NCBI GenBank assembly: GCA_032111345.1
Contig: JAULUW010000009.1
Span: forward strand, 14,467 to 56,749
From: Bacteroidia bacterium
GTDB taxonomy: Bacteria > Bacteroidota > Bacteroidia > NS11-12g > UBA955
Reading direction: 5' to 3'
Length of the DNA stretch: 42,283 nucleotides
The position numbers and the translations under genes are program-made. This document shows positions 839 to 8,249 of the stretch, one piece after another; position 1 is the stretch's first letter; every line of letters starts with the position of its first letter. The notes under the pieces are model-generated. The model was given only the letters and a program-made list of their open reading frames with translations, searched no databases and had not been told where the DNA came from.

Positions 839-1001
839 ATCTCGCGACTTTAGTGAGTATTTGGCGAGATTGGATCAAGCCACAAGCTATGCGCTTTTTA
901 ATTTCACCACTTTGGCGAGTATTTGGCGAGATAGAGCCAGGGCGCAAACTATACGCTTTTTGAATCTCGCCAATTTGGCGGGTTATAGGCGAGATTATTT
1001 G
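839..1001. repeat. Imperfect tandem repeat, ~62-63 bp unit, about 2.6 copies. Each unit carries an ATCTCGC(C)...(G)GCGAGAT inverted pair.
   Basis: Units start at about 839, 901 and 964. Shared blocks are tttggcgagtatttggcgagat and (a/c)tatgcgcttttt / ctatacgcttttt. The third unit has a perfect 8-bp inverted repeat, ATCTCGCC-16 nt-GGCGAGAT, and overlaps the stop codon (995..997) of ORF 995..2473. Confidence 0.8.
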
Positions 1002-2473
1002 TCATTTAATTCATATTTAGTGCTAGGGCCTGAACCTACTTTTTTCAATAAACCACTATCAGTCCAATCCTTTAGATAACGTTCAGCCGTTCGTGAAGCT
1101 AATCTGGTAAACTCAACAAACTCTGATTTAGATATAGGTCGTTTTTGTCTGAAAATTTCAAAGTTTTTAACATCTTCAGTACTCAAAACATCTATGCTGT
1201 CTTTCCCAATTATCTCTTTAACGGCTTTTGTTGTTCTTGGAAAAGTCAAGGTTAAGAATGGTTCATTGAACGTATATTTTGGAATAGGTAAACCGTGTTC
1301 TTTGTTCAAGGACTTAAACGTTTTCATTCCAAACCCTTTCTCCTCTACATAATTCATCAAGCTAAAGGCATAGGTTATAATATGGTTTCTGCTCAATGAA
1401 GGAGCTTCAAAAGTATTTAGTTCTTCAAGTGTAATAGCTGGTAGCGGTTTGCCCGGACTCGTTACGACAATTTTATCTTCATCAATTTTGATTTCGCATT
1501 TGGCACCTTCAATTTCATAATCTCTGTGAACTAAAGCGTTAACAATAGCTTCTCGTAAAACTTCAATAGGAAAGTCTGGAATGTCTTTTCTTTTGAAACC
1601 ACTAGTGTCCTTCGAAAGTGGTAATACTTTCTTCAACCATTCTTCAATTTTGTCGGGTAAAAGCACCAAGGCCTGATCAAAATCATTCGGCTCAATTTTA
1701 TTACTGCCATAACTTACATGGGCTTTAAGCACTGCATTTTTGAATTTAGCACGTGGGTTTTTACCAAAAAGCAGAATTCCGTAGCCTGTAGGTACAAACA
1801 TCTTCTTTTCTTTGTCCCAATCCATTGCACCAAAATCAGCTAAGTATTCAAGGAAGTTTTCGTCTGTTGGCTTATAATTCAAATTTGCTTCTTTGATGAA
1901 TTTCTGAAGTGCTTCATCCGAAAACTTGCTACTGTCGTAATTTGCAACAGGGAATTCAAAAGTTGTGCGTAAATCTTCTTCTTGGTCGACTTCTATTCTA
2001 CGTTGTAGTGCTTGTTTCAAAAAGACCATATTTTCTTGCTCAATAATTCGTTGAAACTCTCGGTCAAACATTCTGTATTCCACACCGTGTTTTTTCAAGT
2101 GCCTGATGCCATTGCCTTTGGGGTCTTTATCCTCTATGCCAATAAATACTTTTTTAATACGTGCATTAGTCACTCTTCGGCAACAAGGCACTTTGGGTGG
2201 ATTGCGTTCTACACAGGGTTCAAGGGTGGTGTATAATATACAATCTTCTAAATTTTCTTTGGCTAATTTCCTTTCCAATAAAGTAAATTCAGCGTGATCC
2301 CCTTCACGAAGTTCACCCCTGTAGGCTGTTTCTATTCGACCGTCAGGAAAAAGTAAAACGGCACCTACTTTGGGTGGTACTTTACCATCCTCTCTTGGCT
2401 CATTGACGCTTTTATTCATTACATCAATAGCTAATTGCATCAATTTCGTATGCGTAAATTGTTTATTAATCAT
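995..2473 (-). CDS. Fusion protein: N-terminal RibD/CDA-like zinc deaminase domain plus a C-terminal Schlafen/RecG-like HATPase_c_4 module and a winged HTH.
   Basis: 492-aa ORF. Deaminase motifs: DHAEFTLL and TLEPCVERNPPKVPCC (H-A-E ... PC-x9-CC, the RibD-type spacing). C-terminal REAIVNALVHRDYEIEG...VTSPGKPLP...SRNHIITYAFSLMNYVEEKGFGMKTF is the signature of COG2865-type (AlbA_2/HATPase_c_4) proteins. The tail SKSEFVEFTRLASRTAERYLKDWTDSGLLKKVG looks like a wHTH. Confidence 0.7.
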   Translation of the reverse strand: MINKQFTHTKLMQLAIDVMNKSVNEPREDGKVPPKVGAVLLFPDGRIETAYRGELREGDHAEFTLLERKLAKENLEDCILYTTLEPCVERNPPKVPCCRRVTNARIKKVFIGIEDKDPKGNGIRHLKKHGVEYRMFDREFQRIIEQENMVFLKQALQRRIEVDQEEDLRTTFEFPVANYDSSKFSDEALQKFIKEANLNYKPTDENFLEYLADFGAMDWDKEKKMFVPTGYGILLFGKNPRAKFKNAVLKAHVSYGSNKIEPNDFDQALVLLPDKIEEWLKKVLPLSKDTSGFKRKDIPDFPIEVLREAIVNALVHRDYEIEGAKCEIKIDEDKIVVTSPGKPLPAITLEELNTFEAPSLSRNHIITYAFSLMNYVEEKGFGMKTFKSLNKEHGLPIPKYTFNEPFLTLTFPRTTKAVKEIIGKDSIDVLSTEDVKNFEIFRQKRPISKSEFVEFTRLASRTAERYLKDWTDSGLLKKVGSGPSTKYELNDK

Positions 2474-2783: not shown

Positions 2784-4178
2784 TTAAGGCAAACCGCTTT
2801 GATCCGCTTTTTTCTTATTTTCTTTTGACTCCTTGGCTTCTTTTTTGATTTGGTTGATTTCGCTTAATATGTCTTCAAGTCCTTTTGGTTTAGTTTCGAT
2901 ATAAACTAAATCTTCTCCAAAAATCTCCTTATATACGTTTTTAAATTCATCTGTCTTTCTGAATTGTTTGAATAGTGGCCATTCTCTGTATGCATCTTTA
3001 TTCAAATGTTTGTTTGTCGAGCCAATGTTTTTCATTAACGCTATTGATTTCGGATAATCTTCTCTTAATACTGAAATAGCAAGTTTGAATTGGTCGCTTG
3101 TAGCTGACCAATCGTGATTGTCTAAAACACTCGTACAAGCATTTTTATTATCTGCTAAATAATGAGCTAATGCCTTGTTAATTGTAAAAATGCAAAGCAT
3201 TTCTCGGTCTGTGTGTTTTTTAAGTGTTTCAGTCGCAAAAGAAAGTAGATTTAAAGCTAGTCTATGATGTCCTTTTATAAGTAGTGCGTAACAAACATTG
3301 TTTAAATGTGCATCTGCATCTTCAAGTTTATCAGGCAAGAGTTTTCTCCAAACTACTTGTCCAAGTTTCACTCCTATTTCAAACATCACCATATAGCATT
3401 TATTGAAATATTCAGGATTTGCAATAAGTTTCTGTCCGATTTTCACCTTGTCAATATTCTTAACTTCGTTTTCTTTACAAACGTCTATATATTGTCTTGA
3501 AACAACACCGTTGCAATGAACAAAAAGATTTCTCCTTTCTGTTATCTCAATGAAATCACTGAAACTAGGTAAGTCCTTTCTTAAAAGAATATTAAGTTTT
3601 GTTTCGAGCCATTTGAATTGTTTAAGGTGACTTTCTCTTAATACAGATTCAATTTCTTTTTCAATTAAATACTCTCTCGCTTCTTCCAATGAATTGAACT
3701 TTATGAGTTCAGAAAAGAGAATGTTTTTTTCTGAGTTATTGAGCAACTCCGGTTTAGCTTCAAAAATAGTCCTAATTAGTCCGCCTAGGTATGCATCATA
3801 TTGACTGACAAAAGCTACAACAAAATTGATAGGTAGAAGTCTTGTTGCTAAAGCGGTTGTGTCAACCTTATCATTGAGTTCAATAAAACCTTTAAACTTG
3901 TCAGCGGGAATAAGTAGCTTTGAGGCCTCGTTATCTTCTTCTTTTTCTTTATTTTCAACTAGTCCATTTTCCTTAATGTATTTGTTAACGTGTTTAGCTT
4001 CTTGAACAAGTTTTACGTTCAGCAATCCCATAACTAATGGAACAATATCGGCTTGAGCTTCAATATGTTTTATGAATTTATCTAACTCTTTACCGAAGTC
4101 AGGATAAGCAATTACTGTCTGTTGATCTTGATTTGTTATTTTTTCTTCATTCATATTTTTTGTCAATTTGTCGCTCAA
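2784..4178 (-). CDS. HEPN-domain protein (Rx4H motif) with a helical TPR-like C-terminal region; putative RNase or abortive-infection-type effector.
   Basis: 464-aa ORF. ITERRNLFVHCNGVV contains R-x4-H preceded by long helical segments (VSQYDAYLGGLIRTIF...ESVLRESHLKQFKWLE), as in RiboL-PSP/MAE_28990-like HEPN families. The track start at 4178 is TTG; the first ATG is at 4154. A lysine/glutamate-rich tail follows. Confidence 0.55.
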   Translation of the reverse strand: MSDKLTKNMNEEKITNQDQQTVIAYPDFGKELDKFIKHIEAQADIVPLVMGLLNVKLVQEAKHVNKYIKENGLVENKEKEEDNEASKLLIPADKFKGFIELNDKVDTTALATRLLPINFVVAFVSQYDAYLGGLIRTIFEAKPELLNNSEKNILFSELIKFNSLEEAREYLIEKEIESVLRESHLKQFKWLETKLNILLRKDLPSFSDFIEITERRNLFVHCNGVVSRQYIDVCKENEVKNIDKVKIGQKLIANPEYFNKCYMVMFEIGVKLGQVVWRKLLPDKLEDADAHLNNVCYALLIKGHHRLALNLLSFATETLKKHTDREMLCIFTINKALAHYLADNKNACTSVLDNHDWSATSDQFKLAISVLREDYPKSIALMKNIGSTNKHLNKDAYREWPLFKQFRKTDEFKNVYKEIFGEDLVYIETKPKGLEDILSEINQIKKEAKESKENKKKADQSGLP

Positions 4179-4323
4179 AAAGACCGCTAACGTTGTGCGG
4201 CTCTGACTAGTGCTAAGTTAGGGGGCTGCCCTTGTAGGTCAAATGCCAAAGTTTAGTGTTGTTACTCGTTCAAAGTTCTTGACTTATAAAGCATTAGGCA
4301 AAATACTTTTTGGAAGCAGTATT

Positions 4324-5013
4324 TTACACTTTTTTCATTATGCTTTCTGTATTAGTGTTAAGTCGTGCTTCAAATGAATCCCAATTTTTATACAAACTTG
4401 CAGATGCTTTTTTTACGTTAATTCCGTGTTTTTCGGCTAGGATTTTTTTAATAAGCCAAACACTATTATTTATCTTTTGTGTCGTAGGAAATAAGCTACG
4501 ATTAGGAATGAAATGAGTGTCAATAAAGCCACGATTTAGTTGACGCGCTTCATTGAATATGTTTTGAGCCCAATACGATTCTTCAGTATTGTTGTTAGGT
4601 TTAATTTCTTTTGTTCTATAAAGGTTTGACCAATTAGGAAATTCATCTTCCAAGGTGTCAAATAAAATTCCGTGAACAATAGAAAAGTCAAGGTCACTAT
4701 GTTCTCCAATTTTTTTTCCGTAGTTAGGGTACGGGCTGATTGAAAATCCTATTTTGGCACTACCAATAAGCTTAACTTCTGACGGGGAAATATATAATTT
4801 GTCTGCAATGTACTGAGTGATTTGTTCATGTAATATTGGTTTGTCTTTGAACGCAAACGGAATGTTGCTTACTATAAAATATCTAACTAGCGCTTTTTTT
4901 TCTTTATCACCAATGTTGTTATAGTAATATTTAAAGTCAGCAGGAATTGTGTAAGCGCTACTAATTGCAGATGCTGTCAATGATAATGTTATATATTCTC
5001 GAATGTCAGTCAT
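4324..5013 (-). CDS. Pol-beta superfamily (minimal) nucleotidyltransferase-like protein.
   Basis: 229-aa ORF with an ATG start. GSAKIGFS-x17-SDLDFSIV matches the G-S ... D-x-D pattern of Pol-beta-fold NTases (MNT/SMODS-like). The ATG overlaps the stop of the upstream ORF (ATGACTGA). Confidence 0.5.
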   Translation of the reverse strand: MTDIREYITLSLTASAISSAYTIPADFKYYYNNIGDKEKKALVRYFIVSNIPFAFKDKPILHEQITQYIADKLYISPSEVKLIGSAKIGFSISPYPNYGKKIGEHSDLDFSIVHGILFDTLEDEFPNWSNLYRTKEIKPNNNTEESYWAQNIFNEARQLNRGFIDTHFIPNRSLFPTTQKINNSVWLIKKILAEKHGINVKKASASLYKNWDSFEARLNTNTESIMKKV

Positions 5014-5626
5014 GAATTTTAAAATATTTGCGGTTTATGTGGTTATCGTAAAGAGTTATCAAATGTTGTTTTCTGGTTTCTATTTGTCGTAAACGGTTTT
5101 GATCAAAATAATTTGGTTGAGGATATTTTATTCTTGAAATAATTTCAGCCGCTTTCTCAACTGGTAATTCATCTCTTTCTGCAATGCCAAGTTCTGAATA
5201 AGTTTCAGTTAATCCATTCATTCCCGATCCATAATAGGCAACGTTCAAGTAGATTTTTGGTATTGCTTTTTTGGGAACAATGGAAGAAATTGTTGTAGCA
5301 AGAAAAATTTCTTGAATTTTCCTTTTGAATGTTCTGTCAAATTCATTGGTTAAAACACGATCCAATTGTTGTTGAATTGTGCTTGCACCTTCAACTTTAC
5401 CATAAATTATTCGGTTTCTAATGGCTCTAACAATTGCAATAGGATCAAAACCTATATGGTAATAAAATCTGTGGTCTTCACCCGAAATTAAAATTTTGGA
5501 CAAAATAATAGAGTTGTTTGAATCGCTTATTTTTAGCAATTCATATTCCTCAAGAAGTCTGGCCCGAAGTCGGTCATATTTCTTTTCGTAAATTAGTTTG
5601 GCTATATGTCGTAGTATAAAACCCAA
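5006..5626 (-). CDS. GT51 (peptidoglycan glycosyltransferase / MtgA-like) domain protein lacking an N-terminal membrane anchor.
   Basis: 206-aa ORF with GT51 motifs GEDHRFYYHIGFDP (EDxxFxxHxG), GASTIQQQL (GxSTITQQ) and KRKIQEIFLA (RKxxE). The N-terminus MGFILRHIAKLIYEKKYDRLRARLLEEYE has no hydrophobic helix. TTG start; an in-frame TAG lies 11 codons upstream. Confidence 0.65.
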   Translation of the reverse strand: MGFILRHIAKLIYEKKYDRLRARLLEEYELLKISDSNNSIILSKILISGEDHRFYYHIGFDPIAIVRAIRNRIIYGKVEGASTIQQQLDRVLTNEFDRTFKRKIQEIFLATTISSIVPKKAIPKIYLNVAYYGSGMNGLTETYSELGIAERDELPVEKAAEIISRIKYPQPNYFDQNRLRQIETRKQHLITLYDNHINRKYFKIHD

Positions 5627-5887
5627 TGTTAAGTAATGATGTTTTAGAATGGCTGCCTAACTCTTTTAATTAAGAGAAAAAGCACTAATTCTATGTTTGT
5701 AAATATTTGCAAATAAATCATTATTGTAATATTTTTAATTTTCGCAAGGGTAACGGTAAAAAACACATAATAAGTTCTTTAATTGGTTCGACAAAGCCTA
5801 AATTAGGCAGCTCAAATTTAGCTGTACACCAAACGAATAAGTGTTTTTTTCTAGTTATTAGATTCGATACAGTTTTACTCATATACT

Positions 5888-6532
5888 TTAATCTGGGATC
5901 TTATAAATACCATGTTTTATAGCAAAAATTACCATACCCGCCATATTCGATGCATTCGTTTTCTCCATTAGAATGGTTCTGTATTTATTAATAGAATTAG
6001 CAGATAATCCGAGTTTCACAGCAATTTCATTTGCATTTTGCTGTTCACAGATTAATCTAAGTATGGAGATTTCTGTTTCGTTAAAATTTTTTAATTTCAC
6101 AAGCCCTAACTTGTTCTCATCAAATGCCATTTTATAGGCCACCGGGTTATTCAACATGATACTGTTTTTGTAAATAAGGCGAATTGTAGAAGTTAACTCC
6201 TCAGCAGTGCTTTTTTTGAAAAGTACACCATCGGCACCTAATTGCATAATGCGGAGGTTGATAAAATTAGAGGTATGTGCCGAAAAGATGAGGACTTTAA
6301 ATAAGTCTCCAAACTTCTCTCGAATTATTTTTAAGGTTTCAAAACCATCTAATTCTGGCATGTCAATATCGAGTAAAACCAAGTCAGGTACCGTGTGTTC
6401 TAGAAATGTTAAAACTTCAATTCCGTTGCTAAAGGAACCTACAACAACAATATCAGAGCTATTGGTTTCAATGGCGGATTTTATCGATTCGCGCATAAGA
6501 GGATGGTCGTCTGCTATGATTATTTTTATCAT
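5888..6532 (-). CDS. Response regulator, NarL/LuxR family (REC + LuxR-type HTH).
   Basis: MIKIIIADDHPLMRESI...LLDIDMPELDG receiver motifs. The C-terminal ETEISILRLICEQQNANEIAVKLGLSANSINKYRTILMEK is a LuxR HTH. Confidence 0.9.
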   Translation of the reverse strand: MIKIIIADDHPLMRESIKSAIETNSSDIVVVGSFSNGIEVLTFLEHTVPDLVLLDIDMPELDGFETLKIIREKFGDLFKVLIFSAHTSNFINLRIMQLGADGVLFKKSTAEELTSTIRLIYKNSIMLNNPVAYKMAFDENKLGLVKLKNFNETEISILRLICEQQNANEIAVKLGLSANSINKYRTILMEKTNASNMAGMVIFAIKHGIYKIPD

Positions 6533-6535
6533 GAT

Positions 6536-7306
6536 TTAATTATTTAAAGGAATATGAAACTTAAATTCAAAACCATTACCCTTGAGGTTCGAATTTGCAA
6601 CGGCCCCTTTTAACATCTCAATTCTTGCTTTGATGGTATGTGTTCCAAGGCCCTCAATAAAGGAATTTGCATCTATGCCAATACCGTCGTCTGTGTACTT
6701 GAATTCAATTTTTTCTGGGAATGGTTTAATGATTAACTGAACTTTTTGTGCTTTTGCATGCTTTAACGTATTATTGAGTAATTCTTGAAAAATCCGGAAT
6801 AGATTTTTGGTTTCTTCCGGGCCTAATTCTACATAATCATAAAGATATTGAATCTTTAATGATGACGTTTGTTCTATTTGTAAAATTAACTCATGCAAAC
6901 CATCGAATAAACCCAATCGTAACAAAGTTGCCGGATAGAGCATGGTAGATAAATCGGAACATTTTTCGGAAGCCTTATTAATCAGCGTTTCTAATGCTTC
7001 GAAATTATCATTGCCTTTACCCAATAAGGCTGTGTTCGTTTTTAACCGTTGTACTTGCATCCAGGCCAAGGTTAAAACCTGACCTAGATCATCGTGTAGT
7101 AGACTGCCAATTTTTATCCGCTCTTCTTCAATAGCGTTGAGTTGAATTTGATTGATCGTTTTTTGAAAAGCAAGCTCCTTCTTCTCCATATCTAATATGG
7201 TCTTGTTTCTTTCATATGCAGCTTTTAATATGAAAAATCCGCTAATAGTTGTTGTAAGTGCAACTATTACAATGGCAACTATAGCGGTATTAGTTACCGA
7301 TTCCAT
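6536..7306 (-). CDS. Sensor histidine kinase, HisKA_3 (NarX/DesK-like) type.
   Basis: One N-terminal TM segment, H-box LHDDLGQVL, N-box ELLNNTLKHA, G-boxes DDGIGI and GLGTHTI. A 3-nt gap separates it from the response regulator gene. Confidence 0.85.
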   Translation of the reverse strand: MESVTNTAIVAIVIVALTTTISGFFILKAAYERNKTILDMEKKELAFQKTINQIQLNAIEEERIKIGSLLHDDLGQVLTLAWMQVQRLKTNTALLGKGNDNFEALETLINKASEKCSDLSTMLYPATLLRLGLFDGLHELILQIEQTSSLKIQYLYDYVELGPEETKNLFRIFQELLNNTLKHAKAQKVQLIIKPFPEKIEFKYTDDGIGIDANSFIEGLGTHTIKARIEMLKGAVANSNLKGNGFEFKFHIPLNN

Positions 7307-7944
7307 AATAAACCAATAAAAGTGAAAGCATAAAACAAAATGAATTTCAGTGTCAGATAAATATTTAAAAAACGATCGTGTTGCATTATGTCAATATATA
7401 AATACCTTGCCATGCTGTGATTGATAAAATCGAGTGTGGATATTATGAAAATTGCCAATACAAAACAAATTTTACTCACAGGATACTTTGGTATGGTAAA
7501 TATTTTTAACAAAACATGTATAGAGAAAAGCATACCTAAAATACTGATTAAAAAATTTACATTTTCATATTCTAAGGCATTCAAAAAACCATAATCAGAA
7601 TATTTTTCTTGGGATGCAGCAGGATAATCAAACATAAAAAGTGAAGCAGCATACAATGCAACCCCAACTCCGCTAATCAACGATACGGCTTTCTCGATTG
7701 AATTTGTTGTGATCAATTGCTTCAGTATAAAAATAACAATGAACAACTCAATTCCATTTACGACTACTAACAACTCTAAATTTGACGTTAACAGCGTATC
7801 ATCGATCCAATTACACAACAAATTCAGCATCCCCCAAAACGAGAAAACTAAATACCAACGTTCATGGGTAGCAGTATACTTCCGCCATCCTAATAATATT
7901 AGGATGGCAAAAGCTGTTGTTTTGACAATCCAAAAATCAATCAA
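7294..7944 (-). CDS. Polytopic membrane protein (about six hydrophobic helices), possible input/sensor partner of the kinase.
   Basis: The 216-aa ORF is hydrophobic throughout. It overlaps the kinase start by 13 nt, and its TTG start overlaps the upstream stop (TTGA). Confidence 0.5.
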   Translation of the reverse strand: MIDFWIVKTTAFAILILLGWRKYTATHERWYLVFSFWGMLNLLCNWIDDTLLTSNLELLVVVNGIELFIVIFILKQLITTNSIEKAVSLISGVGVALYAASLFMFDYPAASQEKYSDYGFLNALEYENVNFLISILGMLFSIHVLLKIFTIPKYPVSKICFVLAIFIISTLDFINHSMARYLYIDIMQHDRFLNIYLTLKFILFYAFTFIGLLWNR

Positions 7945-8249
7945 CTATTTAATGGGTTGCTACTTGAACAATGTGAAGGACAAGGTTTAGCAAATTCTGC
8001 TAGCAGCCCTTGGTACAAATCATTTTCATCTGCTTTTGCTCCACAAAGTACCAATGTTAAATTTCCATTGTTGATAGCGAAATAATATTTGAGTCCGACA
8101 CATTCTGCTTGATTTAAAATTGCCATTACAGCATCCTTACTGAAGAATCCCCCGATTTTAGAATTAATGTTAGCGTCTCTGTACGCTTTAGTCATAACAG
8201 AAGCATCAACTAGTGTTATGGAATGGTTTTCATTTGGATTAAAAGACAT
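7941..8249 (-). CDS. Small protein of unknown function; first gene of the two-component operon.
   Basis: 102-aa ORF with an ATG start, no signal peptide and a Cys-containing C-terminus (KPCPSHCSSS). Translationally coupled to the next gene. Confidence 0.45.
   Translation of the reverse strand: MSFNPNENHSITLVDASVMTKAYRDANINSKIGGFFSKDAVMAILNQAECVGLKYYFAINNGNLTLVLCGAKADENDLYQGLLAEFAKPCPSHCSSSNPLNS

Follow-up and report, generated by a model that had tools for sequence, protein, structure and literature searches.

An anchorless GT51 domain protein and its translationally coupled partner: a predicted mobile two-gene module of diverse bacteria

GT51 enzymes are the textbook lipid II polymerases of bacteria: anchored in the membrane, facing the periplasm, and targets of antibiotics. 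What, then, is to be made of a GT51 protein that keeps every catalytic residue, is without an anchor, and is locked to a second, uncharacterised enzyme, an arrangement unexpected for cell-wall biology? This question is raised by a 1.3-kb locus in a 42,283-nucleotide stretch of DNA from a Bacteroidia bacterium (GenBank assembly GCA_032111345.1, contig JAULUW010000009.1, positions 14,467 to 56,749), referred to here in its whole length as the window. The locus consists of two open reading frames (ORFs), both on the minus strand, as are all features of the window described below: gene 1 (5006..5626), present in the ORF list and encoding a GT51-like protein of 206 aa from a TTG start, and gene 2 (4324..5013), encoding a partner protein of 229 aa from an ATG start and bearing a nucleotidyltransferase (NTase)-like G-S...D-x-D signature. 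The start of gene 2 lies over the stop of gene 1 in an 8-nt overlap, ATGACTGA (5006..5013). Coordinates, lengths, starts and overlap were all correctly given in a first-pass annotation of this DNA, and the overlap of stop and start is of the kind by which translation of gene 2 is predicted to be coupled to that of gene 1.

Because both proteins belong to large, length-conserved families, the two ORFs are far beyond chance. The module is real, widespread and, within the reach of our searches, unclassified and undescribed. Specifically, no family of PADLOC-DB v2.0.0 was matched by either protein at E <= 0.1, and the literature in PubMed Central and bioRxiv yielded neither a GT51-containing defence or toxin-antitoxin (TA) module nor a description of a cytoplasmic GT51; the first-pass impression that the pair matches no named defence or TA system is upheld by both searches.

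A GT51 domain without a membrane anchor

The assignment of gene 1 to the GT51 family with intact catalytic motifs, proposed in the first-pass annotation, is confirmed by a profile match and by comparison with solved structures. The protein matches the Transgly profile PF00912 with 102 bits (E = 3.2e-29; cut-off 27), the match taking in positions 23-172 of the 178 in the profile, and among solved structures it comes closest to Aquifex aeolicus PBP1a, in the form of the soluble GT domain (2oqo, E = 1.4e-17), on whose catalytic motifs the EDHRF, GASTIQQQL and RKIQE strings of gene 1 align. The conservation of these motifs was followed in a family sample of 120 members obtained by homolog search. 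Motif 1, EDHRFYYHIG (residues 50-59; 5450..5479), which includes the catalytic E50, is present in 119 members, and both motif 2, GASTIQQQL (residues 80-88; 5363..5389), and motif 3, RKIQE (residues 102-106; 5309..5323), which includes the second catalytic glutamate, E106, are present in all 120; motif 4, YLNVAYYG (5228..5251), is represented by Y-[LIVF]-N in 105. The GT51 motifs are likewise intact in all 32 diverse loci of the genome scan described below.

Membership of the family does not extend to its best known branches. The NCBIfam models for penicillin-binding proteins (PBPs) and for MtgA all match the GT51 region of gene 1 with scores far under their equivalog cut-offs (79.7 bits for the MtgA model TIGR02070, whose cut-off is 182.65), and the protein is a single domain with no transpeptidase domain. 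Judged from its sequence, gene 1 encodes a complete, true GT51 domain with its catalytic residues intact, which belongs to the GT51 family and stands outside MtgA and the class A PBPs; lipid II polymerase activity is predicted for it.

As stated in the first-pass annotation, gene 1 is without an N-terminal anchor or signal peptide. Neither a transmembrane (TM) helix nor a signal peptide was found in either protein, the maximum Kyte-Doolittle 19-mer value (KD19) being 1.0 in gene 1, where the peak falls within the domain, and 0.99 in gene 2. Because an in-frame TAG stands 31-33 nt 5' of the TTG, the ORF of gene 1 cannot be extended upstream, and there is no alternative in-frame start. Within the family sample, a length of exactly 206 aa is shared by 66 of the 120 members, 74 carry the ED motif at residue 50, and the KD19 maximum ahead of this motif has a median of 0.35. 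An upstream in-frame TM anchor in homologs, which the first-pass annotation had named as the mark of a truncated gene, is not a feature of the family as a whole; by these predictions, anchorlessness is a family-wide trait and not the product of truncation.

The N-terminal segment of gene 1, M/L-GFILRHIAKLIYE (5585..5626), is basic and amphipathic with a hydrophobic moment of 0.57, and might make in-plane contact with the membrane. Such a basic, amphipathic character of the first 14 residues is shared by a Chitinophagales-like clade and by the fusion proteins described below, and is not found in a Flavobacterium-like clade. Charged residues occur within the 12-14-residue N-terminal segment of most members, the window protein included. 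The segment is predicted not to be a TM helix; contact with the membrane through it is possible.

The partner protein and its invariant residues

The product of gene 2 is a member of a large family. A first search returned 200 clusters, nearly all of 225-235 aa and all without annotation, and an exhaustive profile search returned 1054 representatives at E <= 1e-3, 203 of them at E <= 1e-30. The window protein has no match in Pfam, NCBIfam or PADLOC, and no match was found when PDB sequences were searched with partner profiles of 38 or 124 members. A phage protein family of unknown function, phrog_32008, is matched by residues 31-136 (E = 2.4e-8). Modelling with AlphaFold2 gave a pLDDT of 82 in a first model and a pLDDT of 97, with a pTM of 0.91, in a deeper second one.

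Five residues, G84, S85, G89, D107 and D109, are the sole invariant positions among 124 family members that reach down to ~24% identity, each being present in 124 of 124. The first three lie in GSAKIG (4747..4764), at the end of a predicted strand (residues 80-83), and the two aspartates lie in SDLD (4687..4698), at the start of a predicted strand (107-113). A candidate third acidic residue, D165, is found in GFID (4519..4530) on a predicted strand (163-165) and is an aspartate in 111 of the 124 members; a catalytic role for it is possible. All motifs quoted for the two proteins in the first-pass annotation are present, GSAKIGFS beginning at residue 84 of the partner and SDLDFSIV at residue 106, and the spacer between these two, there counted as 17 residues, has 14. 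Across the family, the spacing from G-[ST] to D-x-D amounts to 17-22 residues, longer than in the minimal nucleotidyltransferases (MNT).

Several observations point towards an NTase. Nine of the 124 members match PF01909 (NTP_transf_2), all below threshold (best E = 0.011), and no other Pfam family is matched by more than three; in one fusion protein the PF01909 match, at E = 0.01, falls precisely over the G-S...D-x-D stretch. The sole recurrent PADLOC match, a weak one in four of the 124 (best E = 0.0011), is to the CBASS oligonucleotide cyclase (CD-NTase). Comparison of the partner with a validated MNT alignment by hhalign gave a probability of 54-66% and P ~1e-4 over a short region, pairing SDLD of the partner with SDLDLAII of MNT; in greedy mode, a helix, the G-S strand, an 11-residue insert, the D-x-D strand and the next helix run in register. 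In addition, the succession of predicted secondary-structure elements is consistent with an NTase core of alpha-beta-alpha-beta-alpha-beta type into which two helices are inserted, and the Pol-beta pattern of hG[GS], [DE]h[DE]h and a third acidic residue is present in both sequence and model positions.

In the first-pass annotation the partner was called a Pol-beta-fold NTase. The part of this proposal that stands is the invariant G-S and D-x-D signature, together with recurrent sub-threshold NTase matches; no match passes a threshold and Foldseek finds no relative, and the assignment is weakly supported and not established. The protein may possess a very divergent NTase-like active site, or its fold may be new and its acidic site convergent, and we consider the two about equally probable. 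If it is a true nucleotidyltransferase it would form a very divergent branch, and if it is not, it presents a confidently predicted fold without a known relative.

A coupled gene pair and its surroundings

How firmly the two genes belong together was addressed by a pattern-limited scan with the partner alignment, covering one genome for each of 185,579 species, from which 35 loci were recovered. In 32 of the 33 loci whose upstream position lies on the contig, a GT51 gene stands immediately 5' of the partner gene on the same strand. The loci span at least five phyla (Bacteroidota, Pseudomonadota, Campylobacterota, Acidobacteriota and a Desulfobacterota-like group), many of them belonging to Bacteroidota and others to Pseudomonas, Methylobacter, Sulfurovum and metagenome-assembled genomes (MAGs) of Acidobacteria and Syntrophobacter; the pair was also found on an Aliarcobacter plasmid and on one IMG/VR viral contig. 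Start and stop overlap in 30 of the 32 loci with the same gene order, at exactly 8 nt as called in 16 of them, and the remaining two have gaps of 12-13 nt. Conservation of the two genes as neighbours, on which the first-pass annotation had made its proposal depend, is thus seen across phyla. The 33rd locus, on a contig of a Puia sp. MAG (L016:432-2331), is reversed: the partner gene comes first and is followed after ~450 nt by a GT51 gene of 253 aa with a hydrophobic N-terminal segment (KD19 1.75).

The two proteins also diverge together, the mirror-tree correlation being r = 0.90 and none of 2000 Mantel permutations reaching so high a value. At least five single-chain fusions exist (P0244, P0261, P0316, P0322 and P0317), in which GT51 is N-terminal and the partner C-terminal. 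One of these, P0317 (634 aa), has an additional C-terminal domain of ~180 residues, without a Pfam match, that could serve as a sensor or interaction domain. When loci were selected by GT51, the partner was present in two of three, and a partner without GT51 was never found in about 45 loci. Two solitary GT51 genes came to light. On a Spirochaetia MAG contig (L052:4639-5262), the gene for a GT51 protein 65% identical to that of the window precedes a Zn_peptidase_2 gene, and no partner remnant is present; on the other contig (L049:496-1545), the protein (P0197) consists of GT51 and a C-terminal glucosaminidase (PF01832), a CHAP-domain gene comes next and the partner is missing, this contig being a single metagenome contig of 2.4 kb that is possibly an assembly chimera. 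On the strength of these sequence comparisons, GT51 and partner are a conserved, horizontally mobile two-gene unit that is sometimes fused.

In an all-against-all comparison of the neighbours at 36 loci, the GT51 and partner families were the only ones conserved. Eleven contexts were annotated, by Pfam or from the record, taking in neighbours within 10 kb, and six of them contain recognisable defence or TA genes. These are the Aliarcobacter plasmid (TIR, DUF4917, PLD, DUF4365, HNH with an AAA ATPase, and IS21), Flavobacterium limicola (a CAP12-PCTIR TIR gene directly 3' of the pair), L047 (DUF4365-TPR and an OLD-TOPRIM ATPase), Pedobacter (RmuC), L050 (Mrr_cat and DUF3800) and L051 (MNT-HepT, YoeB, PIN and MazG). 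Among 107 immediate neighbours, PADLOC recognised MADS components, type I restriction-modification, SoFic, DRT-type RmuC and several PDC candidates, and Pfam recognised tRNA synthetases, transporters and biosynthetic genes as well; at certain loci transposases are the only notable neighbours. As for defence islands, a setting that the first-pass annotation had named for checking, defence or TA genes thus occur in six of the eleven contexts and other loci have housekeeping surroundings; an enrichment of defence genes around the pair is suggested by these counts. The accessory character of the pair is apparent in its recovery at 35 loci in the pattern-limited scan and in a GC content under that of its surroundings. 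Together these data suggest a small mobile cassette that often resides in variable or defence regions.

Several candidate extensions of the unit, and one candidate origin, were tried and rejected. A search by tblastn with three queries against 50,697 phage records found no partner homolog, the matches of P0317 being to PBPs only; a phage origin of the pair is rejected on this count, one IMG/VR contig holding the pair. A third component in the form of DUF4365-TPR is not supported either: the gene lies 3' of the pair at two distant loci and at no other locus fetched, and is best described as a co-located neighbour. The two proteins, on a Campylobacterota plasmid (L036:10621-12564) and in a Bacteroidota MAG (L047:10852-12735), are homologous, with 25% identity over ~600 aa (E = 3e-31). 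Lastly, a three-gene system that includes either of two genes on the 3' side in the window is discounted, each of them lying beside the pair only in near-identical metagenome contigs. The nearer one (2784..4178) encodes 464 aa and contains an Rx4-6H-like string, ERRNLFVH. The protein has no match in Pfam, PADLOC, NCBIfam or PHROGs, and the gene lies outside the conserved unit; the label of HEPN that it received in the first-pass annotation is without profile support, its basis being this string. The farther one (995..2473; 492 aa) joins a cytidine/dCMP deaminase domain to a HATPase_c_4 (RecG-C-like) region, has partial PADLOC matches to proteins associated with prokaryotic Argonautes and a strong PHROG match to 'DNA helicase', and may by itself be a defence gene.

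Elsewhere in the window, a cluster of four genes (5888..8249) lies 5' of the pair. Its products are a protein of 102 aa, a multi-pass membrane protein of 216 aa, a histidine kinase (HisKA_3) and a response regulator of the LuxR type; the cluster is kept in near-identical contigs and does not occur beside the pair elsewhere. Between the response-regulator gene and gene 1 lie 261 nt of intergenic sequence (5627..5887), presumed to hold the promoter of a two-gene operon. For this Bacteroidota-like sequence a sigma-70 promoter scan was uninformative, as was a scan for terminators. Downstream, 145 nt (4179..4323) separate the pair from the non-conserved 464-aa gene, and a weak A/U-rich hairpin is all that follows the stop of gene 2, the fold of this region being no more stable than those of shuffled sequences (z = 0.22). 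The description of the stretch as AT-rich is moderately true, the GC content of the pair being 0.32 against 0.38 for the window. Both proteins are devoid of cysteine, and neither tRNA genes nor Rfam families above threshold were found in the window.

Possible roles and relation to known systems

MraY and MurG build lipid II on the cytoplasmic leaflet, ahead of its flipping, and GT51 domains devoid of a TM helix are active in vitro. Dead-end intermediates linked to undecaprenyl are toxic, and a nucleotide-dependent enzyme would find no substrate in the periplasm. The reading that we put forward, and regard as possible while stopping short of calling it probable, is that lipid II is the target of the pair, which would act upon it from the cytoplasmic face as a mobile conflict module; the cytoplasmic location, the substrate, the chemistry of the partner and the role in conflict are here what we infer. 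A complex acting from the inside is the most economical model, since both active sites are conserved, export signals are absent, the two proteins are tied together by overlap of their genes or by fusion, GT51 is needed by the partner and not the partner by GT51, and the cassette is mobile. In this model, GT51 and partner would associate in a single complex at the cytoplasmic membrane, on its inner face, where the GT51 subunit would reach lipid II before flipping. Wrong-side polymerisation would tie up undecaprenyl phosphate in dead-end products, such that envelope synthesis would stop. The G-S/G/D-x-D residues of the partner may constitute a divergent, Pol-beta-like active site dependent upon metal and nucleotide, through which the partner would control or complete polymerisation, transferring a nucleotidyl group to the GT51 subunit or else to the glycan. 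Growth arrest of the abortive-infection (Abi) or addiction type would result.

The first-pass suggestion of a cell-envelope-targeting Abi or TA module is, then, a reasonable hypothesis. More doubtful is the fuller version of an immune or addiction system in which, upon a trigger, an inward-turned GT51 ties up the undecaprenyl carrier through wrong-side polymerisation of lipid II, a step controlled or completed by a highly derived NTase-like enzyme of apparently new fold. Were lipid II indeed acted upon from the cytoplasmic side, this would reveal a novel means of poisoning or rewiring the synthesis of the envelope, and perhaps an immune effector of a new class; were the conflict role true, no defence or TA effector before it would have used the chemistry of cell-wall synthesis itself.

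A number of findings weigh against a conflict module acting from within. Neither protein is matched by a PADLOC model, and toxicity, phage defence and the cytoplasmic topology of the pair are conjectural. The NTase nature of the partner passes no threshold test, whether by profile, PDB sequence or Foldseek, the last of which returned no significant relative of the partner models from PDB and BFVD (best E = 0.89, TM-score <= 0.24). Family GT51 genes occur without a partner at two loci, L052 and L049, and because of these solitary genes a GT51 toxin that needs the partner as its antidote is disfavoured. Several loci lie amid housekeeping genes or operons with no recognisable defence neighbour. 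Finally, the N-termini of a few members (P0322, and L031 as called) reach a KD19 of 1.8-1.9, hydrophobic enough for a TM helix, and a periplasmic placement could therefore apply to these members.

Four other explanations deserve to be weighed. The pair could be an accessory set of envelope-glycan enzymes with no role in conflict, a membrane-peripheral GT51 polymerising an undecaprenyl-linked disaccharide on the cytoplasmic face and the partner decorating or capping it, in the manner of LicD/fukutin proteins with CDP-activated donors. Both active sites are under strong purifying selection, the fusions imply consecutive or joint catalysis, and GT51 occurs without the partner and never the reverse (~45 loci), the pattern that a partner working on what GT51 produces would give; ordinary metabolic genes surround several loci, and the spacing from G-[ST] to D-x-D in the partner is presumably closer to that of LicD than to that of MNT. 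Other genes for glycan biosynthesis, flippases or export are, however, not conserved beside the pair, its distribution is sporadic and mobile with frequent defence or TA neighbours, and no LicD or other family match appeared in the top listings, no search having been aimed at LicD. We think this account unlikely. Somewhat more so is a TA or Abi module with the NTase-like partner as toxin, after the manner of AbiEii and MenT, and with the GT51-like protein as antitoxin or as sensor, perhaps of the state of lipid II. The overlapping genes, with a possible antitoxin 5' and a possible toxin 3', resemble type II and type IV TA operons, the invariant residues of the partner are NTase-like, the partner is never alone and GT51 is so twice, and one locus is embedded among TA modules; yet invariant GT51 catalytic motifs are hard to explain in a mere antitoxin, both proteins exceed the typical size of TA components, and no similarity to AbiEii, MenT or DUF1814 is seen, a lone weak match to AbiEi (one of 124 members) being noise.

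Still less probable, in our judgement, is an ordinary accessory peptidoglycan synthase, exported or anchored non-classically or by an N-terminal helix that has degenerated, that adds glycan-polymerising capacity with the partner as its regulator or chaperone. Such a synthase would account for a complete and canonical GT51 domain and for the fairly hydrophobic N-termini of P0322 (KD19 1.8), L031 (1.93) and the 253-aa GT51 adjoining the partner at L016 (1.75). It is harder to reconcile with the charged N-terminal segment of most members (KD19 <= 1.0 in the window, family median 0.35), with an MtgA equivalog score of 79.7 against a cut-off of 182.65, and with a partner which as a separate protein is without a signal peptide and in the fusions would have to follow GT51 across the membrane, into a periplasm that holds no substrate for a nucleotide-dependent enzyme. 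As for a decayed remnant of mtgA or of a class A PBP gene beside an unrelated chance ORF, the unusual TTG start and the missing anchor would speak for it in the window copy only; with 120 homologs that share length, motifs and lack of an anchor, with 1054 partner representatives, and with adjacency, co-divergence and fusions, this explanation is rejected as having next to no likelihood.

The proposed conflict module resembles several known systems in part. MNT-HEPN (MntA-HepT), a type VII TA system, is likewise a small, coupled two-gene operon with a G-S...D-x-D protein and is found in regions rich in TA and defence genes; here the second protein is GT51 and not a HEPN RNase, and the partner has double the size of MNT, the insert of 11 residues separating G-S from D-x-D and two further inserted helices preceding the third strand. 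In CBASS, too, a possible NTase-like enzyme stands beside an effector-like enzyme, and the weak cyclase match in four of 124 partners belongs to this likeness; the GT51 protein, in contrast, has no nucleotide-sensing domain, no CBASS model was matched above threshold, and the direct fusions of GT51 to partner favour a physical complex over second-messenger signalling. AbiE and MenAT share the overlapping two-gene operon with a possible NTase downstream, and differ in that the partner shows no similarity to AbiEii, MenT or DUF1814 and in that the upstream protein is here an enzyme and not a winged helix-turn-helix antitoxin. LicD/fukutin-type phosphotransferases of NTase fold are cytoplasmic, possess a G-x...D-x-D site, and act on undecaprenyl-linked glycan precursors; enzymes of this kind would fit a partner acting on the GT51 product. 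The closest likeness is that of gene 1 to the GT51 domains of MtgA and the class A PBPs (PF00912; 2oqo, 3hzs, 3vma), with which it shares nearly the full length of the same domain and, aligned residue for residue, both catalytic glutamates and motifs 1-4. From these enzymes it is set apart by the lack of an N-terminal TM anchor and of a transpeptidase domain and by scores under the equivalog cut-offs, and the module as a whole is set apart by being accessory and mobile and by its second protein, coupled or fused to the first, for which canonical GT51 enzymes have no counterpart.

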